A stretch of 58,272 bases of DNA from Bacteroidales bacterium (GCA_021740175.1 JAIPAH010000002.1:1-58272), one strand, 5' to 3'; counted from the first letter of the stretch, positions 17,143 through 37,476 are shown. A program made the numbers and translations. The notes: a model not told the origin generated them from the letters alone.

Positions 17143-19862
17143 TTTATTTGTGATGTATCAATCCACTCAAAGTTTCTTACTTTGTCTTTTGTTTTCTTAT
17201 CATTAAGTCCATTTACTTCTTTTACAGCTTTTCCGAACTTGTTGTAGTTCACTAATACCCCATCATCTAAATCTATGTTGATCCGCTCTGTAGCCAATGG
17301 ATATAGTATCTCCCTGTCATATTCCTTAACTTCCCAAAGCATCTTATCAATTCTTTCATCTTCTTTTATGGCCTCTGTTTTTTCACGGGTACTTCCACTT
17401 ACCTTGAGTTCTTGTAAGTGTTCTTTTCTAATGCTCAATTTCTCCGTGAATTCTCTCAAATATTTATTCAAAATATTATTTATGGTATCGGGAGTATACC
17501 TGTGCATATAAATTAACACGTTGAAAACGCCATTAGGTGAAGAAAGCATCCAGTAAATAGGTCTCTTTTTGTACCGTTTAATATGGTCTTTATAAAAGTC
17601 TTTCATGAAATACTTACGAATAGGTTTCCCCAGAGAATCTTCCACAAAGGCGAGGTTATTTTCAAAATTTTCTTCTCCAAAGGTGACTTTCAAAAACTGA
17701 TGGAATCGACCCACTATATCGTCTTCAAACCATTCATCGTCCAATACAGGAATTACATTGTCATCATCGGGTAAAAAGGAAATTTCATTTTGAGGCTTTC
17801 CAACTTTTTCAAGGTAATCTTGCAGAGTTTCTCCTTGATTGGCGAGAATAAGTCCTTCTTTATCCAATGAATATCGCCCAAACATACATCCAACGGCATA
17901 ACTCACAAATTGGGCAATGACTTCATCAGCATGAAATATTAGTTGTCCATTTTCTATACTCGTTTCTTGTTGAAGTATTGTAATATTCTCTAATGGTACA
18001 TTAGGAGATAATTCATTTTGCAAACCATAAATTTCAATGAATTGTTGGTTTACTTTTTCTTCATTACGATGAAGTTGGAAATATTTATTTCTCCAATATT
18101 GTTTATAAAGATCAAATGATTCTTCTATATCTTGAGCTTTTAAGCTGCATAATTCATTTTTGGAAAAAAACCATGATGATTCTCTTTGGTTCCAATCGGA
18201 TTTAGCAATGTCAATGCAAGAAGATACAATGACTTTTAAATTATTATCATCAAATCCTGAGTATGGTATTTTTGAAACATCACCTACATTAAAAGTCAAA
18301 GTGGGGCTTAATACCTCAAGAAATGATAAAACAACTTTTGAGTTTAAAAAACCAATTAACTCTTCATTAGTACTATTAATAATAGGTCCCCTTGAATTTG
18401 GAATAAAACCAAACTCTTGCATTCTAAAAGCAGGGGCTCCAGAGCTAACATCACTGAAAGATATTCCTTCCATACAGTAATAGTTATAATTCCTAATATA
18501 TCTTGACCAACTATTTGTAGCTGGATCATTAGGATTGTTTATTAACCAATCTTTTATTTCTTCACCGTCATTTTCCCAATTTATTATGAAATCGTTGTTA
18601 CCATACCATTTTCTAAATCTTCCTCCTTTTGTCATAGGCAACCATTTTTTGGACTCTTTCAGATCATTTCTGCTTTTATTTGAGAAATCTAACTTTGAAA
18701 ATGAGACTTCGTGCCAAAAACGCAAAAAACGATTATTATTGCCTGTAGAAAGACCTGCTCTTGGTGGGTAAATATGTCTCAAATCTGGTTCTTTAGAAAA
18801 TGCTTCAATCTGCTTTCTGTTTAACCAATAACCGATTCGATAATCAGGTATATTCTTAAAATCATCCTGCAAGGCTGTGTACAACCATGAAGAATTTTTA
18901 TTATTTACTGCTTCTATAGCCTTTGGGGCTTGGTTTTTAGAACCTTTAAAATCACTTAGACGAATATAACTTCCTTTAGCTAAATATTCAGGCTGTTTCT
19001 TTCTTAAAGTAAATGTGCAAATTGGCACAGTAGCTCCTTCGAATCCTGAATATTCAAGTTGAACAAGATTATTTATGAAATAGTTATCAATAATTATTTT
19101 TCTTAACTCTTTATAATTAGAAATGAACATCCAAACAAAAGGAGTCATGTTTCCTGAAAGTCCATTATCATTGGCAAACTCAAGACACCTTATTATGAAA
19201 GAAGCAAATAAATCTGTTTTAGTTGCTGGAAAATACTTCTCCACATATTTTTTCAATTCAGCTTCCATTCGAGATGCATTAAGATAAGGTGGATTTGTCA
19301 CAACCACATCATAAGTTCTGGACAGATAATCAGCTTGTAGTTTTAATCGTTGCTGTTGCTGACCAAATAAAGACTCCTCCTCAGTTTTTATTTCCTCATA
19401 TTCCTCTCGATTGATTTTAATCAGGGAACCCAAGACTTTGGCATTTTTGAATTTGGGGTGGTTTTCGATATTTTGAAAAGAGGTAATATTGGGGTGAGCA
19501 CCTTTTCTAAGAAACTTTCTCTGATTTTGGCGGGCTTTCATCATTAAGGAAAAAGCAGCCATTTGTGCAGCCCTATCATCTATATCAATACCGAATAAAT
19601 TTTTTGTAATGATCAATTCAGGTATTTCTGATGGATTGTATCCTTCTTCTTCATAAATTTTATACAGGAAATCAAATGCATAACTGACTATATGTCCACT
19701 ACCCACGCAAGGATCAAAAAATTGAATTTCTTCAGGAGAGGTTAATTTCCTTTTGGGAATCAATTCTTCATTCTGAGGCTTGATATAGAATTGCAAATGC
19801 TCCGTTATTCTGGTATTTGGTCTTGCTTCCTTCCATAGTTGTCCTAATGTATTATCTACCAA
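17139..19862 (-). pseudogene. pglX: pglX 3' fragment (907 codons, from LVDNTLGQLW to stop) of the disrupted BREX methyltransferase
   Basis: Contains the catalytic VVTNPPYL motif and a long PglX-like C-terminal region. It has no start codon of its own and is read only as a continuation of the recombinase ORF 17139..21473. It joins seamlessly to the 5' fragment at 30096-30812. Confidence 0.85.
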
Positions 19863-19870
19863 ATACTGAA
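19863..19870. repeat. Junction core ATACTGAA (recombinase-proximal att site)
   Basis: On the coding strand ..AATTTTATTCAGTAT|TTGGTAGATAAT... The octamer is identical to the one at 30096-30103. Confidence 0.7.
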
Positions 19871-21473
19871 TAAAATTAGTTATATTAGAACGAATATGCT
19901 CTAATTCCTTGTTAACGTCCTGATAATCTTCGTCTAAACTAAATGTATCAATTAAATATTCATCGCTCAATGGCAGGGCAGTAAAGGTATTCTCAATTAT
20001 TCCATTGATTTCAAATGTTACATCCTTATCCCTGGTAGCATCTACATAAACGCCTAATCTACGCCCTTGACTGTCTTTGCCCTGAAAAGCTCGCTCCACT
20101 AAATTGCGTTTCCATTCATACGGCTTATCAAAGAGGACTTTTAGATTGGATTTCGTACTGTTCAATAAAACGCCCTTGCCTAATTTGGATAGTTTTTTCA
20201 CGTGGTTGGAATCCGGTATGCTTTCCAGTTCTGCATCAATAGCATAAATACGATTCTGTTTAGCAGATTCTTTTTCCCTAATGGAATTGAGTTTGTTTTC
20301 AATTTCTGTTTTATCAAATAACCCGTCCGCTACGGCATCAATTATTTTTCCTTTTTGCTTTTCTAAGGTTTTCAGGTCTTTTTCTAACTCGGTTTTCTCG
20401 GTTTGTAATCCGTCTATTTTTTGCATATCCGGGGCAGCCCTTCGCATGGCTTTTTCCAATCGTTCTACATCGCCAAACGTTTGTACTAATTGAATAACAA
20501 CGGCGGATTCAATTTCCTGAGCCGCAATCCAACGTGGATTATTGCATTTTTTGCGGCTGTGGGCGTGGTGTACATAGTAACGATTCCCACTACTGGTTGT
20601 GGTTCCACATAGTGCATATCCGCAATTCTTACAGAAAATCATCCGGCTTAATAGATACTTATTTTTGATTTGCCCGTGCTTATACGTTCTATTCGCCTCT
20701 GAACGTTCCTGAACGGCTTTTATGGTTTCATCATCTAATAAAGGCGGGATTTCCATTGTTATTTCCTCGTGAATATTCAACCGCTCGTTATTAAATTGTA
20801 CTTTCCACTGACTGCCTACTCGCTCTTTTAATATTCGCCACAAATTAGCAGTATTCATGCCTAAGGATTTAGCAATTTCATCAATTTTCTCGCCTTCCAA
20901 ATACCGATTGGCGGCTTGTTGAATCCGTTGTTGTTTTTCCTTATCCAATCCCCAGCCTTTTTCATCACTGTATGTTCTGCCATAAGGCAAATGTCCACTG
21001 GTAGGAATATTGCGTTTGGCTTTATTTATCCGATTGATAATGCTTTTTTGGCTTTGCATCATGGCGTGAAACTCGTTTATTTCCGCGCTCATGCCTAAAA
21101 ACATATTTTGTTCAGGATTAAATAAGTCATATTCCATTGTACCGACGAAAAAACGGATATTACTTTCTTTTAGAATCCTTAGCCCTTCTTTACTTTTCAA
21201 ATTATCTCGGCTCCAACGACTTGCATCGGTTACAATTACAGCATCAAATAAATCCTTATTACTGTCTTGTAACAATTTTTCCATTTTCTTCCGCTCATAT
21301 TCAGGTGTAGCGTGTTCCTGCCCGGTGTATTGCCAACAATGTTCAGGAATAACGCCATTCAACGCCCTTACATATTGTTTGATTTGCTCGGTTTGCGTTT
21401 TCAAACTCTCGCCCTTTGTCTGTTGGCCTTCGGTGGATACGCGGATAATTGGTGCGAATCTTAATTGTGCCAT
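19863..21473 (-). CDS. Large serine recombinase (native part, 537 codons); ORF reads through the junction into pglX
   Basis: Resolvase catalytic motif APIIRVSTEGQ with DASRWSRD. Recombinase domain GHLPYGRTY. Zinc ribbon CKNCGYALCG..(x)..HSRKKC. Coiled-coil region. No stop codon before the element boundary at 19863. Confidence 0.9.
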
Positions 21474-21526
21474 TGTTCTAATCTATTCTGAGTTTATAAA
21501 TCTTATCATTTATTATTTGTTTGGTT

Positions 21527-21811
21527 CTACTTTGCTGACTTTTTAGGGCTCCATAATTTCTTACAATCCTGGCATTCGTAAGTGCCTCCGGCAAATGGTG
21601 ATATTAAACCGAAAAGAAATGCTCCCGCCCCAATAACAATCAACGGAATACCGATAATCGGAAACATTAGAAGCCAAATTCCGCATCCTGTAAGACCAAG
21701 ACCGCCTAAAATAAATTTAATTGTATGCTCTGCTGCTGTGGTTTTCTTCTGTCTGGTTGAACCGCATTGCGGGCATTGTGGGACTTCATTTTGCTCATTT
21801 TGATTTGTCAT
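21527..21811 (-). CDS. Small zinc-ribbon membrane protein
   Basis: CPQCGS near the N-terminus and CQDCKK near the C-terminus, with two TM helices between them. Confidence 0.5.
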   Translation of the reverse strand: MTNQNEQNEVPQCPQCGSTRQKKTTAAEHTIKFILGGLGLTGCGIWLLMFPIIGIPLIVIGAGAFLFGLISPFAGGTYECQDCKKLWSPKKSAK

Positions 21812-21829
21812 TGTTCTAATTTTTTTGGA

Positions 21830-22465
21830 TTAATATTCGATTCGTTTAATATTCGATTCATTGTCGTCTGGTACAAGGTCGGCATATAACAGCGTCATAT
21901 TGATATTAGAGTGCCCCAGGTACTTTTTCACTTTCAGCAAATCCTTTGTACTCTTGTAAAGATACGTTGCGTACGTGTGCCGGGCGTTATGGATGCTGTA
22001 TTTCTTTGACAATCCTGCCGTTTCAACCGCCTTTTCCCAGCTTTTCATGAGTGTTATTGTTGGCGGGTGATTCCCGTTCCTGCCTGCAAACAATGGCGCA
22101 TTTTTATCAATGGATTGGCCTAATGTCTTTTGTTTGTAGCTTATGAAGTTTTTCAGGTGCGAGCATAGACCGGATTCAATGTACACGAAACGCTGTTTTT
22201 TCCTTTTCCCGCTCCTGACAATTAGATAAGGATTTTTTCCTGTGGTGTTAATGTCGCCAATCGTTAAGGCTGCCAGTTCCATAACTCGCAAACCGCTATA
22301 CAAAGCTAAATCAACAAGCATGTAACGGACAGGCTTTGTTTTCCTACCTTTCATTAAATCTAATTCCGAACGTTCACGACACGTTTTTAATAATGTCTTT
22401 TGTTCGTCTTCATCCAGAAACTTTTCCGGTGTGATTACGTAGTTTGAAATTTCTCGGGCTGCCAT
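21830..22465 (-). CDS. Short tyrosine recombinase (catalytic domain only)
   Basis: GLRVMEL (box I Arg), HNARHTYATYLY (H-x-x-R) and LGHSNINMTLLYADL (His/Tyr). At 211 aa it lacks a long N-terminal core-binding domain. Confidence 0.85.
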   Translation of the reverse strand: MAAREISNYVITPEKFLDEDEQKTLLKTCRERSELDLMKGRKTKPVRYMLVDLALYSGLRVMELAALTIGDINTTGKNPYLIVRSGKRKKQRFVYIESGLCSHLKNFISYKQKTLGQSIDKNAPLFAGRNGNHPPTITLMKSWEKAVETAGLSKKYSIHNARHTYATYLYKSTKDLLKVKKYLGHSNINMTLLYADLVPDDNESNIKRIEY

Positions 22466-22702
22466 AATGTAGATTTTTAGTGTAAATATTTTATAGTTTA
22501 TTTAATTGTTTTTATATAATACCTTTAAAAAATCAATTAGATTTTATATATTATATAATATTTGCTATAAAATTAATATAAAAATTGGAACATTCCTGAC
22601 ATATGACCGAATAATTTTAAAATTATTTGTTAAAAATATTTATCACATTCAGCATCCACAAGCAATCTCAGCACTTCCATAACACGAACAATATTTTACA
22701 AG

Positions 22703-23413
22703 TCAACGTAAACGAGTGTATGGAATTGGGCGTGGACGCACAGGCTTTGTTTTATCGGTATTTTCTTCGTTCTCCTGAACGTTCTCCTTTTCCTTATATC
22801 CTTGTTTATCCTTTTCGTCTGTTACAGGCGAAGTTTTCGGGGTTTTTGTACGGGTCATAGGTTTTGTTTGTGGTTTCCTTAATTCCCACGCAAAGTAACT
22901 TTCATCAATAACCGTATTGGAATGCTCGTCTGTCATTTTCGCATACAACTGGTTAAATACCGATAATTCAGTCCGGTTTAGCTTGGAGAATGCCTTTTCT
23001 AATTCAAACTCATGTTCCTGTTCTGTTTGGTGCTGTGCTTGCTCCTGCTCCGCCTGTTTGCTTTGGTGATACGCATACGATATTTTAGATAATAGCTCTA
23101 ATATGTTTCGTTGCTCACTAATCGCTTTTAAAGCCATTCCATCCCGCTGTTTATTATAATTCCTGTCAAATATATCCTTTGCCTTAGTCAGGATGTCATC
23201 GATCTTATCAAACAAATTAAATCCTTCATCTAATGATTTCCTTTCATATGCCTGTTGGATTTGCCTACTTAAATGATTCTGCATATGGTTACGCACTGTA
23301 TAATAAGCCATACCATACTTTTTAGAAATTTGCAGAAAGGATTCACCCCCCATGTAAGCCCTTTCCATTTCGAGTTTATACTCGTCTTTGCATAAATCAC
23401 ATCTATCTGCCAT
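22703..23413 (-). CDS. HTH-containing protein (regulator or small-terminase-like), function uncertain
   Basis: N-terminal C.LC followed by ..FLQISKKYGMAYYTVRNHMQNHL (HTH-like), then a coiled-coil and an acidic/basic tail. Confidence 0.35.
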   Translation of the reverse strand: MADRCDLCKDEYKLEMERAYMGGESFLQISKKYGMAYYTVRNHMQNHLSRQIQQAYERKSLDEGFNLFDKIDDILTKAKDIFDRNYNKQRDGMALKAISEQRNILELLSKISYAYHQSKQAEQEQAQHQTEQEHEFELEKAFSKLNRTELSVFNQLYAKMTDEHSNTVIDESYFAWELRKPQTKPMTRTKTPKTSPVTDEKDKQGYKEKENVQENEENTDKTKPVRPRPIPYTRLR

Positions 23414-23414
23414 T

Positions 23415-23726
23415 TTATTTTCCTCCTTTTAGCCCGTTAATTAATTCTGTTAATTTGATATTTCTATGTTTTGTTCTTATTATTGCCTTAAACCCTTGAT
23501 TTTCATACCTTTCTATAAATTCTGGTAGTTCATCTGCTATTATTGCTGGCTCGGATTGGATTTCCTTAGTCTGTCTCTGGAATGATACAATATCAATTAG
23601 CCAGCAATCTGGGTCTGCTGTGCAAATGAGAATAGAATTGGATGAATGAGTTTTACTCAATATTCCGATTCGTTTGTAGTTTTTATATCTTTTGGATAGC
23701 TTCATCTTATTATTCTTTTGGGTCAA
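23415..23726 (-). CDS. Hypothetical protein
   Basis: 103-aa ORF, tightly packed with its neighbours on the same strand. Confidence 0.4.
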   Translation of the reverse strand: MTQKNNKMKLSKRYKNYKRIGILSKTHSSNSILICTADPDCWLIDIVSFQRQTKEIQSEPAIIADELPEFIERYENQGFKAIIRTKHRNIKLTELINGLKGGK

Positions 23727-23885
23727 TTATTCTTATTATTTATCCATTAGTAAAAATTAGATTAAAAATTGTGTGCAATCTCTCTCCCTTATTTATGTTT
23801 ATAATATATTTTATATAGTATTTTATATTGTATTTAATACGGGTTCTAAAACTTATTGATAACCAATTAATTATAAAGATTTTTA

Positions 23886-24013
23886 TTCTCCATTTATAGT
23901 TAAACCATTCTCCATTTATAGTTAAACCATTCTCCATTTATAGTTAAACCATTCTCCATTTATAGGTCGCTATTTTCCATTTATAGGTCGCTATTTTCCA
24001 TTTATAGGTCTGA
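23886..24013. repeat. Six tandem 21-22-bp iterons (putative replication origin)
   Basis: TTCTCCATTTATAGTTAAACCA occurs three times (23886-23951). TT(C/T)TCCATTTATAGGTCGCTA occurs twice (23952-23993), plus one partial copy. The array abuts and overlaps the 3' end of the Rep-like gene. Confidence 0.8.
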
Positions 24014-25657
24014 TTGTTTTAAATTAGATGTAGATTTATATTTTTCTTCTTTTCCAGTTAAATTCTCTGTTCCGAACTTCATCCCGGTTTGTTCATCCTT
24101 ATATTTCCATTTAACTTTCATTACTTTACTTGGATATTCGCCTTCATCACCTGTTGCAGACATACTACCGATAGTTACCTTGGATTTTCCTTTTCCTTTT
24201 CGATTCATGGCCTCCTCTAATTTGATAAACTTTTCCCGTAAACTTCGCCCGGATTCAATTTGTGGCGTGAATCGGTCATTTATATTCTTAGCATACCACG
24301 ACAAGGCGTTTTCTATCCGCTCAATACTTACTTTGTTTTCCTCCACTAATAACCGAATATCATTGCTCCAATTCTGTTCCTGTTTTACGGTGCAGCGAAT
24401 ACCTCTTTCATTTTCAATAATCGTAGCGAGCTTTTCAGCTAATGGATAATATTTAGAGTTTACAGGCTTTTCGGATAGGGTTTTGGGTTTGCTGCTATTA
24501 GGCTCATTAATTGCAGCACTTTTGTATTGATTGGTTCCTCTGCCACCTGAATGACTACTCGCAACTTCTCCCTTTTCCTGGCCTTGTTTGATAGGCATAA
24601 TATTGACTTTATCCCGTTCAATCTCAAAACGCCCGATAAGTCCTCTTTTCATTAACTTGTTTAATGTAGTTTTAATCTCAAACCGAATATTTGCCATGCT
24701 TTTTTGTTCTGATTGCAGCCCTCCTAATCCGGTTAATTCATACATTTTCCTGATTCCAATGTTAGATAATCGCCCGTATTGATTAAATGACTTTTGCCGC
24801 ATTAAGAAGTAATAAATATTAGCTTCCCGGCTCGGTAACTTGAAATAAATTTCTGGTTTCATAAACGGGTATCCTTCATCAATAAGGTCAACAAAATTCT
24901 TATCCATAAAAATTTCAATCTCAAAAGATGAATCCTCCTCTAATTCCACAGCCCCGTCTAAAATACCGCCAATCATTCTTTTCCCATTTTTATTTTTTAG
25001 AGTTATAACACACCCCCGCAATCGTTCTAAACTATTCCAAATGGCCTCTTTGGTTTTTTTATCATAGGGATTAGCTTTTTGAAGCATTTGGCCTATTTCT
25101 GTCATGGTGGTAGTAAAATAAATATTCTTTCTATTGATTTCCGTTTTCTTCATTCGTTTGATAAGCAATAAAGCGAGTGTCGTTTTCGCATCCTCCGCAG
25201 TTAATGCTGTTCCTTTGATTTCCATTGTTGTTAGGCCATATTTTCGCTCTAACGGTTGTGAAAGCTCAATGAATTTACCTTCCCTTTTATTTAAACATAG
25301 GAAAGGTGTGGGAGCTACAAAATCATTTGGTAACCCTTTATAATCGGTTTCAAAAAATCCTTTGTATTGCGGTTTAATAAGGGGTTTTATAAGTCTCCGA
25401 GCTTGCGGATTGAATTTTTTTGCAATATCTACTACATCTTTTTCATGATGAGCCCTGATAAAGCGGTTAATTCCTTTCTTCATATCAGTTTTAATGGCTT
25501 CAATACTTTGTGTATCGTTATCTGTTGTTTGCCATAGGTCTTCGTATTTACTATAAAGCTCGTTACAATTCTCAAAATATTTACTGACTTGATATAGAGT
25601 GGATAAATATTTTTGTAATTCCGTCTTTTTCTTTGTTGGTTGTTTTGTCCTTTTCAT
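24002..25657 (-). CDS. Putative replication initiator (Rep/winged-helix-like)
   Basis: 551 aa. Central region ..IYYFLMRQKSFNQYGRLSNIGIRKMYELTGLGG.. is reminiscent of RepA/Rep_3 initiators. Iteron array lies immediately downstream. The assignment is mostly contextual. Confidence 0.5.
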   Translation of the reverse strand: MKRTKQPTKKKTELQKYLSTLYQVSKYFENCNELYSKYEDLWQTTDNDTQSIEAIKTDMKKGINRFIRAHHEKDVVDIAKKFNPQARRLIKPLIKPQYKGFFETDYKGLPNDFVAPTPFLCLNKREGKFIELSQPLERKYGLTTMEIKGTALTAEDAKTTLALLLIKRMKKTEINRKNIYFTTTMTEIGQMLQKANPYDKKTKEAIWNSLERLRGCVITLKNKNGKRMIGGILDGAVELEEDSSFEIEIFMDKNFVDLIDEGYPFMKPEIYFKLPSREANIYYFLMRQKSFNQYGRLSNIGIRKMYELTGLGGLQSEQKSMANIRFEIKTTLNKLMKRGLIGRFEIERDKVNIMPIKQGQEKGEVASSHSGGRGTNQYKSAAINEPNSSKPKTLSEKPVNSKYYPLAEKLATIIENERGIRCTVKQEQNWSNDIRLLVEENKVSIERIENALSWYAKNINDRFTPQIESGRSLREKFIKLEEAMNRKGKGKSKVTIGSMSATGDEGEYPSKVMKVKWKYKDEQTGMKFGTENLTGKEEKYKSTSNLKQSDL

Positions 25658-25704
25658 AATACATCATTTTATCATTCTACATTCTGTCCATTCCTTTTTT
25701 ATAA

Positions 25705-25773
25705 GTCTGAGCTAAGGAGCAGTAGAGGAACGAACAAAACTACTGCCCCACAGCTCCGGCAGCTGCCTCAGAC
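25705..25773. other. GC-rich multi-hairpin palindromic element upstream of rep
   Basis: The outer stem GTCTGAG/CTCAGAC (25705-11 / 25767-73) encloses the GCAGTAG/CTACTGC hairpin (25719-25 / 25740-46) and the palindrome GGCAGCTGCC (25758-67). Confidence 0.5.
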
Positions 25774-25850
25774 CCTATATGTTGCCCGGCGGTCGTAATC
25801 CAGTACAAAAACTACAACCCTTTTTTTGGCTTTCCGGGCAATGTCTTTAG

Positions 25851-26012
25851 TTATTCAATTGCTTCTTTTAATATTTTTGATAAGTAAAAAGCATATCCAG
25901 CCCAAAAAGCTATTACGATTCCCGTTATGATATTTTCATCTATAAAATTGTACATGCTAAATCCTATCAATGCCACTGCTATGCTTAGCAAAAAATATCT
26001 TATCGTTTTCAT
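25851..26012 (-). CDS. Possible 53-aa two-TM membrane peptide (below ORF-track cutoff)
   Basis: My own translation: MKTIRYFLLSIAVALIGFSMYNFIDENIITGIVIAFWAGYAFYLSKILKEAIE. Same strand as all other element genes. Confidence 0.35.
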   Translation of the reverse strand: MKTIRYFLLSIAVALIGFSMYNFIDENIITGIVIAFWAGYAFYLSKILKEAIE

Positions 26013-26186
26013 GGTTCATCTTTATTTTATAATACGATTTCATCTCATTTCAATTAAAGAAGGGAGCCGGATGAAAGCACGACCCCCTTCAAACCAAAAA
26101 AAGAGAGAACAAACCAAACCACAAACCAGCATTGCCGTAGAAAATGCTGAAACAAAATCCAACGCCGCCAGTTTGTATCTTAAATA

Positions 26187-26972
26187 TCATTTTACGGATT
26201 CCTTTTCCAATTCAAAATCCTTTCCGTCCCATTTAGGGAGCGGCGCTTTGACGTTCGCCCGCATCATGGATTTTTTGCCTTCATCTTTCGCTTTTGCTCG
26301 TTCTAATTTTGTTAATCTCCTACATTCGAGCTTCCACGTAGATACAAGCGTAAAGTAATCCGAAGTTTTCATTCCGTTGTAAGGACTTCGTTCATCCTTA
26401 ATCCTTAAAACTTTTTTGGAATCCGGTTCAACGTTTTGCCCGTCAATCTCGCAAAGGACTCCGCCTCGCATTTTCCCAGCACCCTGTAAACCATGTTTCA
26501 GGACTCGGCCTTTAGCAATCTTTTCTTTTTCCTTTTGGACTTTATCGAGCCTACGTTTAATCGAATCCAGCTCCAATTTGGTAACATCGTAATATGCTTC
26601 CGCCTTAAACATTTTCTCCGCAATATGTGGCGGGTATTCCGTTGGCTTTGCCCTGCCTGCATTTACCTTTTCTTGTTGGTATTCCTGCCAACTGGTTTCA
26701 GCATCTTTCAGATGAGCTTTCGCAATGTTCATTTTACTATCCCGATTCTCGTTTCTCTCCTGATAGTAAAACATCCCGTCTTCCGGGCGTCCTTCCCATT
26801 CGAGCCGCATAGATTTCAGAAATACCGGGTCATCCAAACTGCCTGACACTGAAAAATCTTCTACAAACTGATTATTCAGTATTGCGCTTTCCTTCCGGTG
26901 CTTGTCATACTTTTTATCATAAGCCGGATGCTGCCCGATTTGATACCTTCGTTTTCCACTATTGTTTCCCAT
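26187..26972 (-). CDS. Hypothetical charged protein (phage-like context)
   Basis: 261-aa ORF, same strand, 10 nt after the upstream gene. No family recognised. Confidence 0.45.
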   Translation of the reverse strand: MGNNSGKRRYQIGQHPAYDKKYDKHRKESAILNNQFVEDFSVSGSLDDPVFLKSMRLEWEGRPEDGMFYYQERNENRDSKMNIAKAHLKDAETSWQEYQQEKVNAGRAKPTEYPPHIAEKMFKAEAYYDVTKLELDSIKRRLDKVQKEKEKIAKGRVLKHGLQGAGKMRGGVLCEIDGQNVEPDSKKVLRIKDERSPYNGMKTSDYFTLVSTWKLECRRLTKLERAKAKDEGKKSMMRANVKAPLPKWDGKDFELEKESVK

Positions 26973-26982
26973 TGTTGCCTCC

Positions 26983-27762
26983 TTATTTTACGTTAGGCAA
27001 CAACAATCCGTCATCGCCTTCATTCTCGTTTTCTTCTACTTTGTTATAAGCAGTAGGCAGCAAGATTCCCTGTTTTTCTGCCTCTGCCTGTAAGGTTTTT
27101 AAACCTTTTTCATCCTTGTTTTCTTTGGGTTTCTCCACTCCATTTGGCGGAAACAATCCCATGTCCTGTAAAGTGTCCATTTCAACCTCCTTATTTACGT
27201 TATTTATCATTATTTCTCCAGCCTGTGTGGCCAGTTCTTTTAATCTACTATTTGTTCTAATCCCGCATCCGTCAGCCCAGCTACATGCACCCCTTTCATT
27301 TGGTAACAGCGCCAGGTGGTCTGGTTCCATAGCAATCGAACTCATATAGTATTCATTATCGTTATATGTACCGTAGGTTTCCGTTTCTTCTGAGAATACC
27401 CCTGCGCTAACTTCTTTCACGCTTTGTATCTCCGTTAATCGGTTATGATTGGATGGAATCTCAATTTTAGCTTTGATTCCTTTTTTGCTATTGTCATATT
27501 GCGGTTGGGTTACTTTTCCGATAATCTCGTCCGGAGCTTCTTTTACGCTAATCGGTTCTCCATTTCGCACTGGATGGTTGATAACAACGGGCGTTCCTTC
27601 CCATTTGCTCGCATTGTCTCGTAATACGTGCGCAGGCCAAAAGATTGGACCGCGGCTTCCGTGATGCACGCCTTCAACCATTATTATGACCGGGGCAACT
27701 GCCTTGTTTCCGACAAGCTGCCACGGGCTGGTTAAATTAACTGTTATTGATTGTCTTTTCAT
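26983..27762 (-). CDS. Phage-like protein, possibly DUF2213 / prohead protease-scaffold-like
   Basis: VEGVHHGSRGPIFWPAHVLRDNASKWEGTPVVINHP resembles the N-terminal signature I recall for DUF2213 phage proteins. Acidic C-terminal tail. Confidence 0.35.
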   Translation of the reverse strand: MKRQSITVNLTSPWQLVGNKAVAPVIIMVEGVHHGSRGPIFWPAHVLRDNASKWEGTPVVINHPVRNGEPISVKEAPDEIIGKVTQPQYDNSKKGIKAKIEIPSNHNRLTEIQSVKEVSAGVFSEETETYGTYNDNEYYMSSIAMEPDHLALLPNERGACSWADGCGIRTNSRLKELATQAGEIMINNVNKEVEMDTLQDMGLFPPNGVEKPKENKDEKGLKTLQAEAEKQGILLPTAYNKVEENENEGDDGLLLPNVK

Positions 27763-28219
27763 AGCTTAATCGTTTTTGAAGGTCTGACATATATTTTTTC
27801 TCCTCTTCGGCAAAGTCCACTCCATCTCGTCTCAATTGCATTTCAGCTCGGGTTTTTTCCATCAATAAAAAACGGTCGAAAAAGGATTTTGCGCTAACGA
27901 GAAAAGATAACTTCTCATTCATCGGTAAACCCTGAATCTTTGTGAAAACCTTGTAAAATGCTTGCTCCACTTCGTAGGGGGCCATGGGCTTGCCTTTCAT
28001 TGGCATTTCTCGGTTATTCAACCAGTCAATCGGTCCTAATTCTACTTCCAGAAGTTCCCGGACTTTCGGCCCTGGGTTATTTGTACCGTTTTCAATAAAG
28101 CTGATTGTCACTGTGGAAACGCCTGACTTAGCGGCTAACTCCGTTTGTGTTAATCCCGCTCTTTTTCTCACATTTTGCAGAGAATAGTATCTCATTTTTT
28201 TATCGTATTTAAGTACCAA
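27737..28219 (-). CDS. XRE-family HTH regulator
   Basis: LQNVRKRAGLTQTELAAKSGVSTVTISFIENGTNNP is a canonical Cro/C1 HTH. The start may be the internal Met (MRYYSLQN). Confidence 0.8.
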   Translation of the reverse strand: MVLKYDKKMRYYSLQNVRKRAGLTQTELAAKSGVSTVTISFIENGTNNPGPKVRELLEVELGPIDWLNNREMPMKGKPMAPYEVEQAFYKVFTKIQGLPMNEKLSFLVSAKSFFDRFLLMEKTRAEMQLRRDGVDFAEEEKKYMSDLQKRLSYEKTINNS

Positions 28220-28623
28220 AATTCATTTACAAGATTAAAATTAATATCTTCCCTTAATAAAACCTAATAAAATCATAATAGTTATTAACAATTTTTTATA
28301 TGTTTGTTAATTATATTATATTAATCAATTGCAATCCAATCCATTAACCTTTTATTTAAAATATATATTAATTATTAATATTTTTAAAATATATGCTTAA
28401 GTTTTAAACTTTGGGGTTTATTTTATACTTTTAATCAGATACTTGCGAAAGTCTAAAACACGAAATGAACGGCTCTAATAAACGTTCGGGGTAATATGGG
28501 TATAATATACTGGAAAGGATAGAACGTTTATGAGAGCTTAAATTTGACACCTTATTTGCTTTTTAAATCGGAATTGATTAATTTAGTCAGGTTATGTATA
28601 ATATTGCGATTAGGGTTGAGATG

Positions 28624-28663
28624 AAAAAGCCCGGCCATTTCGAGGAAAGGTCGGGCTTTGTTA
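28624..28663. terminator. Rho-independent-type hairpin downstream of lipoprotein gene
   Basis: GCCCGGCC (28629-36) pairs with GGTCGGGC (28649-56), 8 bp with one G-U. Flanked by AAAAA on one side and TTTGTTATT on the other. Confidence 0.5.
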
Positions 28664-28697
28664 TTATATTAAAATTTAATTATCAATTAGTGCCAGT

Positions 28698-29330
28698 TTA
28701 TTTTATGTCTTCAAATCTCTTAATTTTAAAATTACGTGTTAATATTATTTGTGTATCAAGTGTTCTCTGGGTTAAATCAGCTTCTGTTGCAGTGATTTTA
28801 GCAGTTACCAAATAATATCTAAAAGTCAATGAGTCCAGAGTAGGGTTATTCAAGTCACCCATTAAAGTACCAAGTCTAATTTGATCTTCCGTTTCTTCTT
28901 CTATCATTTGTTGGATTTCTTTTTCCGCTGATTCTTTTAGCGTCTCATTTTCGTAAACACCCAATTCTCTGTTCAAGGCAATTTTCTTCGATTTTAATTT
29001 TCGTAACTTTCTATTTTTTTTAATTTCTTGCCGTAAAGCATTAAGTTTCATTGTCAAAATAGATTTATCTGTCAAGGTGTCAATACGCTTTATTGTTATT
29101 GAATCAATTGTAATTTTCTCCTCCTCTTTCTTTTGAAGGTCTTCAAGATTCTTGGTGATAAATGTAGTTACTGTTTCTGAAATATTCTCTCTATAGTCTT
29201 TTTTTTCACCTTCTTTTTTGTGGTTAGTGTCAGAGCAAGATAAAAGAGTAGTAATGAAAATTACTAATGTCAGAGTGTTTAATAAGATTTTCATTTTTGT
29301 ATGTTTTTGTTTATAAATTGGAGCTAACAA
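28698..29330 (-). CDS. Lipoprotein with coiled-coil region (element cargo)
   Basis: MKILLNTLTLVIFITTLLSC lipobox. The likely start is the internal Met at 29294. K/E-rich. Confidence 0.55.
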   Translation of the reverse strand: MLAPIYKQKHTKMKILLNTLTLVIFITTLLSCSDTNHKKEGEKKDYRENISETVTTFITKNLEDLQKKEEEKITIDSITIKRIDTLTDKSILTMKLNALRQEIKKNRKLRKLKSKKIALNRELGVYENETLKESAEKEIQQMIEEETEDQIRLGTLMGDLNNPTLDSLTFRYYLVTAKITATEADLTQRTLDTQIILTRNFKIKRFEDIK

Positions 29331-29352
29331 CTAAATATTAATAATTATTTTT

Positions 29353-29904
29353 TTACCAGTTGTCTTTTTCTTTCCTAACTTTAAGCATATTTGTAAGTGT
29401 ATAATCTAAAATTTTTGCAGGGTGTTTAAAATTCATATCTGCATAATCCCTTAATGGATTTTTCTCCCCTTTTTCAGTCAAGGGGTCATCATAAGCCTGA
29501 GAAAACACAAAATTCTTTACTGTTGTCCTGTATTTCCCTTCTTTATAATCAACAATTAAATATCCTGTAAAATGGCTTCTTGCAATATATATTGGTGCTC
29601 TCATTTCTGAATATCCAGCACCTTTATAATCAGGATCAAATGGTTTTAAATCGGCCATAAATTCCTTTTCACTTGGATTTATTTCTACTGTCTCATTTTC
29701 TAAGTAACCTGTTGATTTAAAATTTCTAACAAGTTCATCAAAAGTCAGGTCAGTGTTAAAAACTTTTTGCCATAGAATAACATTACCTTTTTTCTCAAAA
29801 TTGTAACGTTCTTCTTCTGACAAATTGGTTATGCCACTGGAAAATCCACAGCCATTTAATAATGAAGCTGATAGTAATAATAAGATAAAAATGTATTTTT
29901 TCAT
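29353..29904 (-). CDS. Lipoprotein (element cargo)
   Basis: MKKYIFILLLLSASLLNGC lipobox. Confidence 0.55.
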   Translation of the reverse strand: MKKYIFILLLLSASLLNGCGFSSGITNLSEEERYNFEKKGNVILWQKVFNTDLTFDELVRNFKSTGYLENETVEINPSEKEFMADLKPFDPDYKGAGYSEMRAPIYIARSHFTGYLIVDYKEGKYRTTVKNFVFSQAYDDPLTEKGEKNPLRDYADMNFKHPAKILDYTLTNMLKVRKEKDNW

Positions 29905-30053
29905 AGCTTATAAATTTAGTTTAACTAAATTATCAAAAAAATTAAACAATTAATAAATTGTGACTAAGTTAATAGTGATTTGAGCAAAAGTCCAGTTTAT
30001 CTACTAAACAAAATTGCCTTTTTATAAATTAGCTTTCATGTTTTATGTCATAT

Positions 30054-30812
30054 CTAAAAAGAAGCAGCTATATTAAAAGTAGTTTTAGTTTGTATATACT
30101 GAACAATCCATTTAGGAGTGAAAAGCTGCGTAACCGGGGCAATTTCATTCGGATTGTATCTTTTCTTTGCATTAATTAACCTGTCTTTTTCTTCTGAAAT
30201 ATAAAATTGATATAACCAACCAATGATTTCCACATTCTTACAGTCTTTTATATTCATTCCATTCCTTATATCTGTAACAATAGAAAAATCACTACTCAGG
30301 TCATCGGGTAATAGCAATTCTGAATAATCATTAATATGCTCAAATAAAAAAGGGAATATTTTATGTAAATGATTACACGCCCCAATTAGTAATATTTTGT
30401 AAGCCTCATTTTGTGGATTAGAACTGGGAACATTTCCATCCAATATATCCATTATTTTGGCTTTATCAACGGGTAGCTCCTCTGGAATATCGCCTTGCTT
30501 TGCATGGTCAAGGATCTCTGGAATGGTAAATCCATCTTTAGGAGTTACAATTCTAATCTTTAAAGGCTGAAAATCATTAGCATCCAAGAATCTTAGAGCG
30601 ATCAAGCGGTTAAACCAAGTGTAAGCCACCTTCTCAATGAGTTGTTCCTGACTTATCTGATCTAATGTCTCTTTTAATTGTTTTACCCGCCCTTCCTTCT
30701 CTCTTAATTCCGAACTATCACTTGAAAGAATAAAATTAAGATTGGCTTCAATTTGTTCCAAAAGTTTTCTTCTGGCTGACTGAGCAAATTGCTTTAATCG
30801 GTTAGTGTCCAT
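30054..30812 (-). pseudogene. pglX: pglX 5' fragment (239 native codons plus 13 element-derived codons and stop)
   Basis: MDTNRLKQFAQSARRKLLEQ... is a PglX-type N-terminus. The native sequence ends ..FTPKWIVQY at 30096, then IQTKTTFNIAASF* is read from element DNA. Confidence 0.85.
30096..30103. repeat. Junction core ATACTGAA (distal att site)
   Basis: On the coding strand ..TGGATTGTTCAGTAT|ATACAAACTAAA... The octamer is identical to the one at 19863-19870. Confidence 0.7.
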
Positions 30813-30813
30813 A

Positions 30814-33800
30814 CTACAAGGTAATGCGTTTATTGTTCTTTATTTGTTCTAATAACCTCTTTTTTAGCTCCTCTATATATTCATTTACATCTTGCTCATT
30901 CTGTAATTCATTTTTGCCAATATCTACTTTTATAGCCTCTTTTCTTACATAATGAACTGGTGGCCTATCATAGTCTTCATCAGCTTTTCCTTCTTCTTTT
31001 TCAATATTCCTCACCATGAAATTAAGTTGACGTTCCAATAACTCATTTTGCACATAGCTTTTAGTTTGTCTAATATTTGCAATAAATCTTGATGCCTTTA
31101 GCTTCTCAATTTCTTCTTCAAAAGGTTTTATGGCGGCCTCCCTATGATATTCTGATAATTGACTAAACTCGTTTTTTTCTTTTAAAATTTTGATAACCTT
31201 TTCTACTTCTTTTATGGCTTGATTTCTTTCTTGGTCTATCATCTCCAACATTTTTTTTGTCAGAGTGTCTTTGGCCGCTTTGGCATTTTGAATCAAATTT
31301 CCTTTGTAGGGCTGTGGATGGTTATAGACTTTCCGCAAAGTGTCTAATTCTTCAGATTGGATATAATCAAGGTTAGACTGGTCATTCGTAAAGAATTTTT
31401 TAATGGAGTCATAAATATTTTTTTGTTCGCTATACCAAAACTTTTTGATGGGATCTAATAGATCATCTTTTTTATCCAACAGATCATCTTCAAATTCATT
31501 CAGGTGATTTAAGAAATAGGAGTATTCCTTTTTAGATAATCGCTCCAAGAATTCAGAATAAGGTTCAAGCTCTTTTAAAAATTCATAATCAGCCTTGTTA
31601 CTAAGAATCTTTTTTACTTCATCAAGTTCTTCTTGAAGCTTCTCTTTGAAAGCTATTCCTACATCTTTAGCTTCTTTATATGGGCAAGGTTCATCGAATA
31701 TTTCATTATAAAAATTAATTAGGTCTTTTGGATCAATGTCAAGTTGAGGTTCCAAAATCGTGTTGTTGTGGTTTCGATTATTGAGTAAAGCTTCAATAGC
31801 ATCTTCATCTTCCAGTAAAGTGCCTTCTTGCCTCATCTCAATTTTACCACGTTTATAAAGCTTGGCGGTGATACTCCAAATAGCATTAGGATACCAACCA
31901 TATGGTTTCTTAACGAAAGAATCACGAACATCTGCTAATGTTGTTCTATCCGATTGCATTTTCCTTCTGTGAATTAAATTCAGGATTTCACTTTCCGCTT
32001 CTGACATACTGGAATCATCAGTTCCGAATAGATTATAATCGTCACTCCTGATGATTTTCTTGACCGAATCCTCATTAAACTCTTGTTTCCCTATCATTTT
32101 GAGATTCGGGTAGGCAAGCGTTACAAGTTTTTGAAACTCATTTATAACTCTGGTTTTTCCATCTGTGGCAGGACGAGTTTCTTGTTTCTGTCCATTCAGG
32201 TATACATCTGACTGGGCAACTAATTTCTTTAACAGCAGGCCTATATCCCTTCTTCTTTCGGTATTCTGCTGTTGTTTCTCAAATAATATTCTTTTGATAT
32301 TATCATTGTTTGTTGTGGATTGGCTTTGTTTTACGTATTTATCTGTCTTTAAATACATTCTAATATCTTGAAGAAGGCGGTTATCCTGTGGAATGACCAT
32401 CATCATCATAGTATTGTACCCCATTGTCTGGGACTTGAAAAAATCTTTATTATTGTGTCCTTCAAAATTTGGCGTGATAAACTCAATCGTCAACTCTTTC
32501 TCACGACCGAAGAAGGCCCCATCTACTTTTCTCGTATATTCATATTCGTGCTTGTTTTCTAAATACTTAATCTTAGTATCCCCAATAATATGATCAAAAA
32601 TAATCTCGTTGAAAAGTTGGGAAACTTGCTGTTCATCGATTGAAGTGTTCTTAATCTCTTGCTCAATATCTTTCTCATCGTCGGTAAGGTATTCATAAAG
32701 CTCTCCGTTTCTTTGAATATAAGTCTGATTTTCAAGTAGCGCTAATGCCTCTTTAACCTTCTTATCATGCTCATTAATATCTATTTGAGTATGGTCAATC
32801 ATTAAAGTAGAAATATTTCTTTCAGTTGTTTTAAAATTGTCAAAATATTTGACCATAAAAAGGGCCTTTAATACTTGAATGGCAAAGTCATTATCTAAAT
32901 TATTCTCAGCTAAATTGATGGCATTTTGAATTTCACCTCGAATAGTCGCCCTTATTCCCTCGAATAATAAATCAAAACTTACCAGTGTGTTTTCATCATG
33001 ATCTTCAATTCTTTGAACCACATTCTGAAAAACTCCCAACATCGACCTTTCTCCAACTGATTGATGATGCCCTTGGAAAGCATTATGGTTGGACAATGCT
33101 TTTATACACTGCTGGAAAAGATCAAATTGGTAAGGGACAAATGGGTATTTATTGATAAAATCATTTTCATCTTGAAATTTTCTGAACTGCACACCTACAT
33201 CACTAAATGACAAGAGCGTATCCAATGAAGCTTTTTCTTTCTCCCATATGCTTGCCAAAACAGATTTTTTATCCTTTTTTTTTCTTAAAAGTCTTTTTTC
33301 AATAACCTCATCGACATTAGCTGATGTGAGGGGAATTTTTAATTTAAATCTGGCTTGAATCCTTGAAAAATCATTTCTCTGAGACCTATTCATATCTCCC
33401 ACGACCTTTTCCATGTCTTCTTGCGAAGTAACGAAAATCCATGAGTGGCCTTTTGTTTTGGTGGCTAATGTCTCGGCTATAGTTTGTAGATTCAGCATTA
33501 GCTTGGTGTTATTGGAAATATACTGTCCAACCTCATCCACATAGAAATTCAACCGAAAATCCTTCGATTTGGTCTTGATATACTCACTTACTTTATCACA
33601 GAAATCTTCAACCGAAGCATTAATATCTTTTCGTATTGTCTCGATTATATCTCTGTACTTCTCTGGCTTGTCATTCCAAATAGCTCCCAGAACCTCTCCA
33701 ATAGCATCTTTTACTCGTGGGGCGAAATATTGACGTCTATCGTGTGTCCAAAATTTCCCTGTGTGCTTTTCATATTTTTCTTGGAACTCTTTAAAGACGC

Positions 33801-34311
33801 CTTCATTATCCAACCATCTTTCAAATTCTGCCACATGACGTTGTGAGCCAAAATACCCAAGATGGTCATTTAACACTTTGTAAAAGACATTAAGTATGGC
33901 TTCCTCATCGTTTCGGCTTGTTATTTGAGCTTGCTGGTCAATATTAAACAAAATCGACTCGGAGGGAATGCGGGTTGCTTTTAGGATGTCCCCTTTTAGC
34001 ATTTCATCGTCTTCAATCTTTTCAGCAAAGATTTCTCCCAGTTTCTTGTCCTCGTATTCACGGTTTTCTAAAACATAGGAAAGGATTTTTAAAAGATGGG
34101 ATTTACCTGAACCAAAGAAACCACTGATCCATACTCCATTGGCTCCTTGGAAATTATTGTAAGCGGTAAAAAACTCAGATACTTTTTTGGATATTTCTTT
34201 AGTTACCACAAATTCAGAAACCTCATCATGGATGTTTTCTTGATCATCCGCTTTGATGACAGTTTCAATGTAACGGTTAATGTCTTCGGAGAATAAATTT
34301 TTGATTTCCAT
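30814..34311 (-). CDS. brxC: BREX P-loop ATPase BrxC
   Basis: 1165 aa. Walker A GFFGSGKSHLLK. Size and position between brxB and pglX fit BrxC. Confidence 0.9.
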   Translation of the reverse strand: MEIKNLFSEDINRYIETVIKADDQENIHDEVSEFVVTKEISKKVSEFFTAYNNFQGANGVWISGFFGSGKSHLLKILSYVLENREYEDKKLGEIFAEKIEDDEMLKGDILKATRIPSESILFNIDQQAQITSRNDEEAILNVFYKVLNDHLGYFGSQRHVAEFERWLDNEGVFKEFQEKYEKHTGKFWTHDRRQYFAPRVKDAIGEVLGAIWNDKPEKYRDIIETIRKDINASVEDFCDKVSEYIKTKSKDFRLNFYVDEVGQYISNNTKLMLNLQTIAETLATKTKGHSWIFVTSQEDMEKVVGDMNRSQRNDFSRIQARFKLKIPLTSANVDEVIEKRLLRKKKDKKSVLASIWEKEKASLDTLLSFSDVGVQFRKFQDENDFINKYPFVPYQFDLFQQCIKALSNHNAFQGHHQSVGERSMLGVFQNVVQRIEDHDENTLVSFDLLFEGIRATIRGEIQNAINLAENNLDNDFAIQVLKALFMVKYFDNFKTTERNISTLMIDHTQIDINEHDKKVKEALALLENQTYIQRNGELYEYLTDDEKDIEQEIKNTSIDEQQVSQLFNEIIFDHIIGDTKIKYLENKHEYEYTRKVDGAFFGREKELTIEFITPNFEGHNNKDFFKSQTMGYNTMMMMVIPQDNRLLQDIRMYLKTDKYVKQSQSTTNNDNIKRILFEKQQQNTERRRDIGLLLKKLVAQSDVYLNGQKQETRPATDGKTRVINEFQKLVTLAYPNLKMIGKQEFNEDSVKKIIRSDDYNLFGTDDSSMSEAESEILNLIHRRKMQSDRTTLADVRDSFVKKPYGWYPNAIWSITAKLYKRGKIEMRQEGTLLEDEDAIEALLNNRNHNNTILEPQLDIDPKDLINFYNEIFDEPCPYKEAKDVGIAFKEKLQEELDEVKKILSNKADYEFLKELEPYSEFLERLSKKEYSYFLNHLNEFEDDLLDKKDDLLDPIKKFWYSEQKNIYDSIKKFFTNDQSNLDYIQSEELDTLRKVYNHPQPYKGNLIQNAKAAKDTLTKKMLEMIDQERNQAIKEVEKVIKILKEKNEFSQLSEYHREAAIKPFEEEIEKLKASRFIANIRQTKSYVQNELLERQLNFMVRNIEKEEGKADEDYDRPPVHYVRKEAIKVDIGKNELQNEQDVNEYIEELKKRLLEQIKNNKRITL

Positions 34312-37401: not shown

Positions 37402-37476
37402 TCGGAGTGGGGAGATTTGAACTCCCGACCTCTTGACCCCCAGTCAAGCGCGCTGACCATACTGCGCTACACCCCG
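37402..37476 (-). tRNA. tRNA-Pro (anticodon GGG)
   Basis: Manual cloverleaf, 75 nt: CGGGGTG TA GCGC AGTATGGTCA GCGC G CTTGA CTGGGGG TCAAG AGGTC GGGAG TTCAAAT CTCCC CACTCCG A. The 7-bp acceptor stem has one G-U. G37 present. CCA is not encoded. Confidence 0.85.

Follow-up and report, generated by a model that had tools for sequence, protein, structure and literature searches.

A 10.2-kb integrative element with a large serine recombinase splits the BREX-1 gene pglX on a Bacteroidales metagenome contig

Introduction

Several mobile elements are known that reside in a coding gene, among them A118/phi10403S in comK, SPbeta (recombinase SprA) in spsM, skin (SpoIVCA) in sigK and the fdxN element (XisF). 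They have in common a serine recombinase of ~550 aa at the edge of the element, a short core, a dyad-symmetric attP and a coding gene that is split exactly and restored by excision in silico. These features were found again in a 58,272-nt stretch of DNA from a Bacteroidales bacterium (GCA_021740175.1, JAIPAH010000002.1:1-58272; the whole stretch is referred to as the window), in which the gene pglX of a type 1 bacteriophage exclusion (BREX) system is split by a 10,233-bp element. The comK, spsM, sigK and fdxN elements have developmental or competence targets, whereas the target of the pglX element is a phage-defence gene; in contrast to them, the open reading frame (ORF) of its recombinase crosses attP, the centres of its attachment sites are mismatched and there is no sign of programmed excision. 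The mechanism is that of a standard insertion by a large serine recombinase (LSR) into a coding gene, and the locus is probably best explained by a 10.2-kb integrative, self-replicating element that entered pglX by LSR-mediated site-specific recombination.

Mobile elements in defence loci have a precedent, since prophages of Streptococcus pyogenes reportedly integrate into arrays of clustered regularly interspaced short palindromic repeats (CRISPR; Varble et al. 2021). Common to both cases is a defence locus that serves a mobile element for attachment, with weaker immunity as the outcome. The streptococcal insertions are complete prophages at a CRISPR repeat and recur across strains, whereas the present case involves a protein-coding BREX gene, a small element of non-viral appearance and one instance. 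Mycobacteriophages BPs and Brujita with integration-dependent immunity resemble the pglX element in that attP lies inside an element gene and integration alters the C-terminus of a protein, but in these phages the gene concerned encodes the repressor and integration is due to a tyrosine recombinase, while in the pglX element the gene is that of the serine recombinase itself. As for the target, when BREX is switched off, pglX is usually the vulnerable gene, and it is also commonly found truncated (PMC6326788; PMC9881135; PMC9716671). The described cases (homopolymer phase variation, programmed inversions, truncated or split pglX) are alike in that BREX is switched at pglX; they differ in being due to slippage, to invertases that swap pglX segments or to unexplained truncations, and none involves a discrete integrative element with attachment sites. 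Finally, many of the element's own relatives are inserted in a yjbQ/UPF0047-like gene, some of them with a spare copy, whereas the pglX element lies in pglX without a spare.

Split of pglX and its repair in silico

The two parts of pglX and the inserted element are located as follows.

30096..30812, minus strand: pglX 5′ fragment, codons 1-239 (NCBIfam BREX_1_MTaseX profile positions 1-263; alignment with intact homologues)
17139..19862, minus strand: pglX 3′ fragment, codons 240-1146 (Pfam Eco57I, N6_Mtase and MmeI_Mtase; BREX_1_MTaseX, 1002 bits; alignment with PDB 8C45)
19863..30095, minus strand (all genes on the BREX strand): inserted element, 10,233 bp, bounded by the octamer copies

On the plus strand the octamer ATACTGAA is present at 19863-19870 and at 30096-30103, and nowhere else. 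The 5′ fragment ends with ..FTPKWIVQY (Tyr codon at 30098-30096), after which the upstream ORF (30812..30054) continues for 13 element-encoded codons, IQTKTTFNIAASF, to a stop codon at 30054-30056; the 3′ fragment starts from 19862 with LVDNTLGQLW... Joining of 30812..30096 to 19862..17139 yielded an ORF of 3441 nt, that is 1146 codons, without internal stop. Over 100% of its length the repaired PglX could be aligned with more than 100 full-length BREX-1 PglX proteins of Bacteroidota (1125-1193 aa, 57-65% identity). An alignment with 39 intact homologues showed neither gap nor duplication at the joint, with the block TPKWIVQY/xVDNTLGQ restored (a slash marks the joint here and below), and an alignment with 119 homologues was gap-free as well. 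Of the BREX_1_MTaseX profile, the remainder up to position 1209 is covered by the 3′ fragment. A degenerate pattern of 30 nt spanning both junctions has two sites in the window and none in 100 shuffled sequences.

An earlier, sequence-only reading of this DNA had claimed the octamer at both junctions at a spacing of 10,233 bp, an uninterrupted ORF of 1146 aa and normal PglX size after removal of one copy plus the intervening DNA, and the restoration of a conserved motif block. Coordinates, ORF and homologue alignment agree with all three, and the comparison with intact PglX that it had called for revealed a colinear protein with no residue missing or duplicated. The joint it had proposed is exact in position and phase, but the residue that follows, residue 240, is Leu (TTG) and thus departs from the Met (ATG) of all 119 closest homologues. 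Among the 167 columns that are invariant in these homologues, the repaired protein deviates at two, one of which is Met240Leu.

Alignment with Salmonella PglX (PDB 8C45) places the joint at about residue 250 of that protein, within the conserved TQLFTPNWIVQY/LVQN block. The split at codon 239/240 lies ~20-25 residues into the MmeI-like methyltransferase domain, just beyond the N-terminal helical bundle. The 3′ fragment holds this domain with its GSG and NPPY motifs as well as the entire C-terminal half of PglX. GSG, NPPY and the C-terminal half are retained in the chromosomal fusion described below, in which the recombinase takes the place of the helical bundle and of the beginning of the domain.

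The recombinase and its exchanged C-terminal tail

At the edge of the element that adjoins the pglX 3′ fragment lies the recombinase gene.

19863..21473, minus strand: LSR, 537 element-encoded codons (Pfam Resolvase and Zn_ribbon_recom; PHROG 95)

For comparison, 139 other loci with related LSRs were used (52 from species-representative genomes, 80 from metagenomes, 1 from IMG/VR and 6 from protein look-ups; loci are denoted by L and proteins by P numbers). The LSR has its Resolvase domain at residues 10-153 and its Zn_ribbon_recom domain at residues 274-326, matches the 'integrase' family PHROG 95 with E = 2e-49 and retains all 75 columns that are invariant among 26 relatives, the serine of RVSTE included; its best NCBIfam match is XisF, and this match is weak. 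The sequence-only reading had proposed, as one of two possibilities, a mobile element with pglX as its attB. A site-specific element of this kind is borne out; the LSR as the agent, with a gene that crosses the attachment site, had been missed.

In the chromosome the LSR ORF runs through the junction into pglX and encodes 1444 aa (17139-21473, minus strand), the two frames coinciding over the core (..AAT TTT ATT CAG TAT/TTG GTA..). When the element was closed to a circle in silico, the ORF crossed the joint and stopped 13 codons further on, giving a protein of 550 aa that ends with ..FIQYIQTKTTFNIAASF. This is a typical length, as the relatives comprise 468-593 aa. Because attP lies inside the last ~40 nt of the LSR gene, integration has put 907 in-frame pglX codons in the place of the native 13-residue tail. 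That tail is now encoded at the opposite boundary of the element, where it continues the reading frame of the pglX 5′ fragment.

Conservation among the LSR relatives extends to ..IRSNITN-F, i.e. to the junction, and the tails beyond it differ fully in sequence and length, as expected if they are read from whatever DNA lies beyond the attachment site. The rebuilt native tail FIQY/IQTKTTFNI resembles the tail of P0131 (FASY/LQNKISFII) and also those of seven other relatives, among them P0159, P0129, P0154, P0174, P0183 and P0194. The tail motif matches 9 of 120 C-termini, one of which (P0207) was judged a chance match, versus 4 of 1853 control windows. P0154, P0174 and P0183 were looked up and are all encoded on contigs that show only element-type genes; among these contigs is L055, described below. 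The relatives examined in detail, whether integrated or free, all have attP within the LSR ORF.

As an observation on the clade as a whole, attP precedes the end of the recombinase gene by 40-55 nt (19863-19905 and 30054-30095 in the window), the last 13-18 residues are exchanged on integration, and the native tail holds a conserved [QK]..[ST][FY].I motif. The conservation of this motif hints at a function, possibly in the control of directionality.

An in-frame fusion of LSR and PglX by design was considered and rejected: in the yjbQ-targeting relatives examined (e.g. L002) recombinase and target gene are read in different frames, and the recombinase ORF ends within ~50 codons. The in-frame fusion seen here is probably an accident of frame.

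Attachment sites and reversibility

From the junction sequences and a dyad analysis the following attachment sites were assigned.

30071..30120, minus strand: attL, with pglX-side arm, centre TA (30096, 30095) and element-side P′ arm TACAAACTAAAAC...
19838..19887, minus strand: attR, with P arm inside the LSR 3′ end, centre TT (19863, 19862) and pglX-side arm TGGTAGATAAT...

The rebuilt attP is dyad-symmetric at 17 of 24 positions (cagTA/TA/TACaaac, slashes enclosing the centre) and centred on the TA that consists of the last base of the octamer and the next base; dyad scores of at least 17/24 are reached at only 2 of 58,223 window positions. A GTR/NN/TAC centre is also present in L002 and in the unintegrated L057. 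In L002 the dyad centre of attP (17/24) falls within the 3-bp core common to both junctions, which validates the symmetry-based placement of the centre in the pglX element. In the unintegrated relatives the dyad centre is located 42-55 nt before the LSR stop codon. It ranks first in L055, L056 and L059, and in L057, where it is third-ranked (14/24), it was chosen for showing GGTA/TA/TACC. The positions noted for free relatives are L055:2943, L057:6308 and L059:3923. Between attB and attP, 12 of 23 left-arm and 8 of 23 right-arm positions are shared.

Both junctions are required to reconstruct two independent reading frames, one for the colinear PglX and one for a recombinase whose tail has homologues among its relatives, and in addition a dyad-symmetric attP. 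This argues against an assembly chimera in which an element contig was joined to a BREX contig. Such artefacts are conceivable in a sequence from a metagenome assembly, but an overlap of 8 bp is too short to mislead a k-mer assembler, and a chimera is regarded as extremely improbable. The domain make-up of the LSR, a dyad-symmetric attP with a shared 8-bp core and the exact restoration of the target in silico are what an LSR element presents, in line with the preferred reading of site-specific insertion.

With the centre deduced from symmetry, the central dinucleotides of the two sites differ, being TA in attL and TT in attR. Unequal central dinucleotides stop productive strand exchange, as is established for Bxb1 and phiC31, and with this mismatch precise excision is expected to fail. 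All 119 homologues have ATG after the Tyr codon; if the native Tyr codon was TAT, as here, the native attB would have been centred on TA (..CAG TAT ATG..), the same as attP. The simplest account is that attR took an A-to-T change after integration, which would have given both the TT centre and Met240Leu.

The proposed course of events is thus that the LSR recombined attP with the attB in pglX, both TA-centred, so that the element became integrated at codon 239/240; that the LSR tail was exchanged in the same step, 907 pglX codons coming in and the native tail being joined to the pglX 5′ fragment; that BREX-1 would have been turned off by the loss of PglX while the rest of the operon remained intact; and that the later A-to-T change in attR would have blocked excision. 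Precise recombinase-mediated excision is probably blocked and the inactivation fixed in this lineage.

Several points weigh against this account. The 'locked' state depends on one base of a metagenome assembly, and the position of crossover is deduced from symmetry. Leu at the joint is normal in the PglX proteins of Salmonella and E. coli (WIVQYLVQN), so that TTG could be native to the host if the centre had been placed wrongly. Moreover, there is one instance: a second record (GCA_021739995.1, JAIPAQ010000002.1) has the same sequence throughout 24,335 bp and is therefore not independent.

As an alternative to a fixed insertion, a reversible switch in the manner of active lysogeny at comK or sigK had been put forward in the sequence-only reading. 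In such a switch, to which spsM is a further parallel, the element would leave on a signal and BREX would be restored. The exact split, a repaired gene that is fully open with all motifs intact, a recombinase that retains every invariant residue and the compatibility of Leu240 with PglX function in other clades are all in keeping with such a switch. It gains nothing, however, from the attachment sites, whose centres according to the dyad symmetry of attP are unequal; the integrated recombinase has lost its conserved native tail and bears a 907-aa extension, and the element family has no conserved association with pglX. A switch is accordingly considered quite improbable.

Related elements and their targets

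In a database of 5.8 billion proteins the closest LSR is 57% identical. The relatives are elements of ~9-12 kb in Bacteroidales, Desulfobacterota, Spirochaetota and other metagenome-assembled genomes (e.g. L002, L013, L015 and the circular L055), with LSRs that are 47-57% identical and have attP in their 3′ end. Subsets of them share a 261-aa protein, a 236-aa protein, a Rep-like protein and a short tyrosine recombinase with the pglX element.

A fragment of a yjbQ/UPF0047-like gene abuts the LSR gene in 58 of the 119 relatives for which the LSR 3′ flank is present, co-oriented with it in 23 cases and opposed in 35. An intact spare copy of yjbQ is found in 26 of the 139 loci, in 20 of them directly upstream of the LSR gene. 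In the best syntenic relative, L002 (1545-11882), the yjbQ-like gene is split exactly (..GLALVN/AMHISAS..), and a split at ..LVN/AMH.. in either orientation is the commonest insertion of the clade (e.g. L002, L013, L015, L005). A literature search for yjbQ and attB returned no description of yjbQ insertion with a spare copy. Other relatives adjoin DprA-, SDR- or UspA-like genes, as judged by eye. At least two related LSRs abut DprA/Smf-like ORFs by this judgement (L017:11575-12213; L071:1833-2336); if that reading is correct, a competence gene would be another target in the LSR family.

One relative, L055 (JGI 3300035701, Ga0373625_0016053), is a contig of 11,816 bp, circular as judged by a terminal overlap of 127 bp. 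Besides a related LSR, its genes specify a small serine resolvase, GIY-YIG, helix-turn-helix (HTH) and cold-shock-domain proteins and homologues of the 261-aa and 236-aa proteins, and the contig looks like a free form of the element family.

The sequence-only reading knew of no described element family that targets pglX and had asked for a search of relatives for the same insertion. The search was made with tblastn and does not support such a family: none of the 139 other loci has any similarity to PglX, only the window's own contig being found, and the targets are yjbQ-like and other housekeeping-type genes. A junction-spanning 600-aa query against 1.84 billion representative proteins gave no other LSR-PglX fusion among the best 150 matches. 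In its best match, P0241, ~330 residues of a PglX are duplicated in tandem within the protein, and P0356 is a BrxC-PglX run-on, both being either irregular pglX forms or assembly artefacts; ten further matches, inspected because the PglX match started unusually near the N-terminus, are PglX proteins cut at contig ends. Since clusters at 50% identity can hide fusions (the window's own 1444-aa protein is a non-representative and is not listed in the LSR search), the absence of further fusions is weak evidence. The 30-nt degenerate pattern for attB, attP, attL and attR found nothing in metagenome contigs. In a literature search on pglX with serine recombinase, with prophage/attB and with insertional inactivation of defence genes, no description of an integrative element with attachment sites in pglX was found. 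Recurrent occupancy of the same gene, as would mark active lysogeny, was thus not observed.

These results bear on two further readings. One is dedicated anti-defence targeting, in which pglX would be a regular attB, selected because insertion disarms BREX; a possible benefit would be the admission of a helper phage or of other incoming DNA that the element needs. Few PglX motifs are better conserved than the one that contains the site, which would be available wherever BREX-1 spreads, the likeness of the attB and attP arms looks cognate rather than random, and the element carries no spare pglX, while spare yjbQ-like copies accompany related LSRs as described above. The lack of pglX next to any of the 139 related LSR loci and of a second fusion among the junction-query matches, the absence of any LSR above 57% identity from the protein database and the housekeeping-like character of the other targets (yjbQ-like and, by eye, DprA-, SDR- and UspA-like) argue the other way, and dedicated targeting is held to be unlikely.

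Likewise unlikely, and to the same degree, is an off-target accident, in which the normal attB of the recombinase would lie elsewhere and pglX would be a rare pseudo-site. The use of pseudo-sites by serine integrases is known, and the pglX insertion is a singleton. No alternative attB was identified, however, the attP is unlike those of the yjbQ-targeting relatives, suggesting that the element has a separate specificity, and the likeness of the arms to the pglX site is appreciable. As judged from the loci compared, the element is a target-switch member of its LSR clade, without a replacement for the gene it broke. 'Anti-defence by insertional inactivation', as the sequence-only reading had put it, would describe the functional consequence, seen in one instance on one metagenome-assembled contig.

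Gene content of the element

The G+C content is 0.40-0.43 inside the element versus 0.29-0.34 in its flanks. From attL onwards the features that precede the LSR gene are the following.

29353..29904, minus strand: 183-aa ORF, lipoprotein-like by eye from its N-terminal sequence (no match in Pfam, NCBIfam or PADLOC)
28698..29330, minus strand: 210-aa ORF, lipoprotein-like by eye from its N-terminal sequence (no significant family match)
27737..28219, minus strand: HTH_3 (XRE-type) regulator, candidate repressor (Pfam HTH_3, E = 8.6e-12; PHROG transcriptional repressor families)
26983..27762, minus strand: 259-aa DUF2213-like protein, weakly head-maturation-protease-like (PHROG 12864 and 530, E = 6e-7 and 6e-5)
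26187..26972, minus strand: 261-aa protein, hallmark of the element family (tblastn matches in L002, L003, L004, L008, L009, L017, L022, L055, L057 and L059)
24002..25657, minus strand: 551-aa replication protein with DnaD-like / replisome-organiser C-terminal region (PHROG 2514 and 4880, E = 3e-9 and 2e-8)
23885..24007, no strand assigned: iteron array, 5.7 copies of 22 bp (Tandem Repeats Finder score 162, 94% matches)
Between the iterons and the tyrosine recombinase gene, listed before the 236-aa protein, minus strand: 103-aa protein
22703..23413, minus strand: 236-aa protein, conserved in the family (tblastn matches in L002, L003, L009, L011, L022 and L055)
21830..22465, minus strand: 211-aa Xer-like tyrosine recombinase, catalytic domain only (Pfam Phage_integrase, E = 2.5e-29)
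21527..21811, minus strand: 94-aa ORF with CxxC pairs and a hydrophobic stretch by eye (sub-threshold zinc-ribbon matches only)

L002 encodes a homologue of the Rep-like protein with 42% identity. The iterons lie right behind the stop codon of rep and are followed by an AT-rich stretch; the array is a candidate replication origin. The 211-aa tyrosine recombinase, encoded upstream of the LSR gene, has XerA/XerC/XerD-like matches in NCBIfam that are below the cut-offs, and a 58% identical protein is similarly placed in L002 and L009. In the free relatives L055 and L057 a small serine resolvase takes its place. This enzyme was considered as the integrase and rejected, as it comprises the catalytic domain only, is encoded internally and is replaced by a resolvase in the two free relatives; it may resolve multimers of the circular form.

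Scans with Pfam, PHROG, NCBIfam and PADLOC recognised no capsid, terminase, conjugation or defence gene in the element, and PADLOC reported the HTH domain only; homology did not reveal a directionality factor either. The 236-aa and 261-aa proteins had no tblastn match in 50,697 phage records, searches of PDB sequences with three element proteins returned nothing, and promoter and terminator scans gave no more hits than the level of shuffled sequences. Judged by these genes, the element is a small integrative and, by prediction, replicative element. A finer classification is limited by the AlphaFold models of the 259-aa and 261-aa proteins, which, with mean predicted local distance difference test (pLDDT) scores of 37.7 and 59.5, were too poor for fold searches; a homologue search with the 261-aa protein retrieved one sequence besides itself.

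A satellite lifestyle, similar to that of phage-inducible chromosomal islands, is possible. The element has the corresponding combination of an integrase, a repressor and iterons adjoining rep. As to packaging or capsid-redirection genes, it offers only the weak head-protease-like match of the 259-aa protein (PHROG E ~1e-6; against Pfam DUF2213 E = 0.0058, below the curated cut-off). For the idea of dedicated anti-defence targeting these findings cut both ways. The Rep and iteron module, the repressor-like gene and the weak head-protease-like gene recall phage satellites, but no terminase or capsid gene was recognised, two element proteins are without a match in phage genomes, and a single related LSR locus comes from IMG/VR. 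It is rather doubtful that a satellite-like replicative element of the yjbQ-inserting lineage was retargeted to the pglX motif as a selected means of anti-defence, with the tail swap aiding the control of directionality, and a deliberate anti-defence reading as such is doubtful to the same extent.

The BREX-1 operon and neighbouring genes

Apart from pglX, the operon consists of the following genes.

34879..35520, minus strand: brxA (Pfam BrxA PF08849, E = 1.5e-40)
34311..34895, minus strand: brxB (Pfam BrxB PF08747, E = 5.6e-40)
30814..34311, minus strand: brxC, full length (NCBIfam BREX_BrxC, 1058 bits, profile positions 1-1172 of 1173)
14647..17142, minus strand: pglZ, full length (TIGR02687, 697 bits)
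12635..14644, minus strand: brxL, full length (TIGR02688, 602 bits)

The order brxA-brxB-brxC-pglX-pglZ-brxL on one strand is that of BREX type 1, the two pglX fragments adding up to one complete gene. BrxA, BrxB, BrxC, PglZ and BrxL are all full length; the statement of the sequence-only reading that the other BREX-1 genes are intact was confirmed, and the insertion is the sole visible lesion in the operon. In type I BREX both defence and methylation depend on PglX/BrxX, according to a preprint (10.1101/2024.04.12.589305). Because of this reported dependence the system is most likely off here and, without a full-length PglX, would neither methylate nor defend.

Directly upstream of brxA, a 247-aa ORF (36135-36878, minus strand) has a weak S-adenosylmethionine-lyase match (PF23780, E = 9.6e-5) that is below the cut-off. 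About 500 bp past this ORF lies a tRNA-Pro(GGG) gene at 37401-37476 (minus strand), beyond which the G+C content climbs to 0.38-0.44; an Rfam scan found a tRNA, outside the element, as its only match. The BREX block itself may be an island that adjoins the tRNA gene. Past brxL, the region 7938-12570 encodes a 627-aa methyltransferase-like protein (UPF0020 and N6_N4_Mtase matches) with a DUF4325 STAS-like partner, a GMT-wHTH protein and a radical SAM protein, genes which may be more defence-island cargo.

Significance

The insertion of an element with attachment sites into pglX is so far a unique example of a well-known kind of event. Possibly of wider interest is an LSR clade in which attP forms part of the 3′ end of the recombinase gene and the C-terminal tail of the recombinase is consequently exchanged upon integration. 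Many members of this clade insert into a yjbQ-like gene while they carry a spare copy; a literature search found no description of either feature. For BREX, the case shows that loss of pglX is tolerated and that a single clean insertion can silence an otherwise intact six-gene defence system. If the targeting of pglX should prove recurrent, site-specific insertion into a defence gene would join the anti-defence repertoire, and the recombinase would have a ready-made landing site in many BREX-carrying Bacteroidota.

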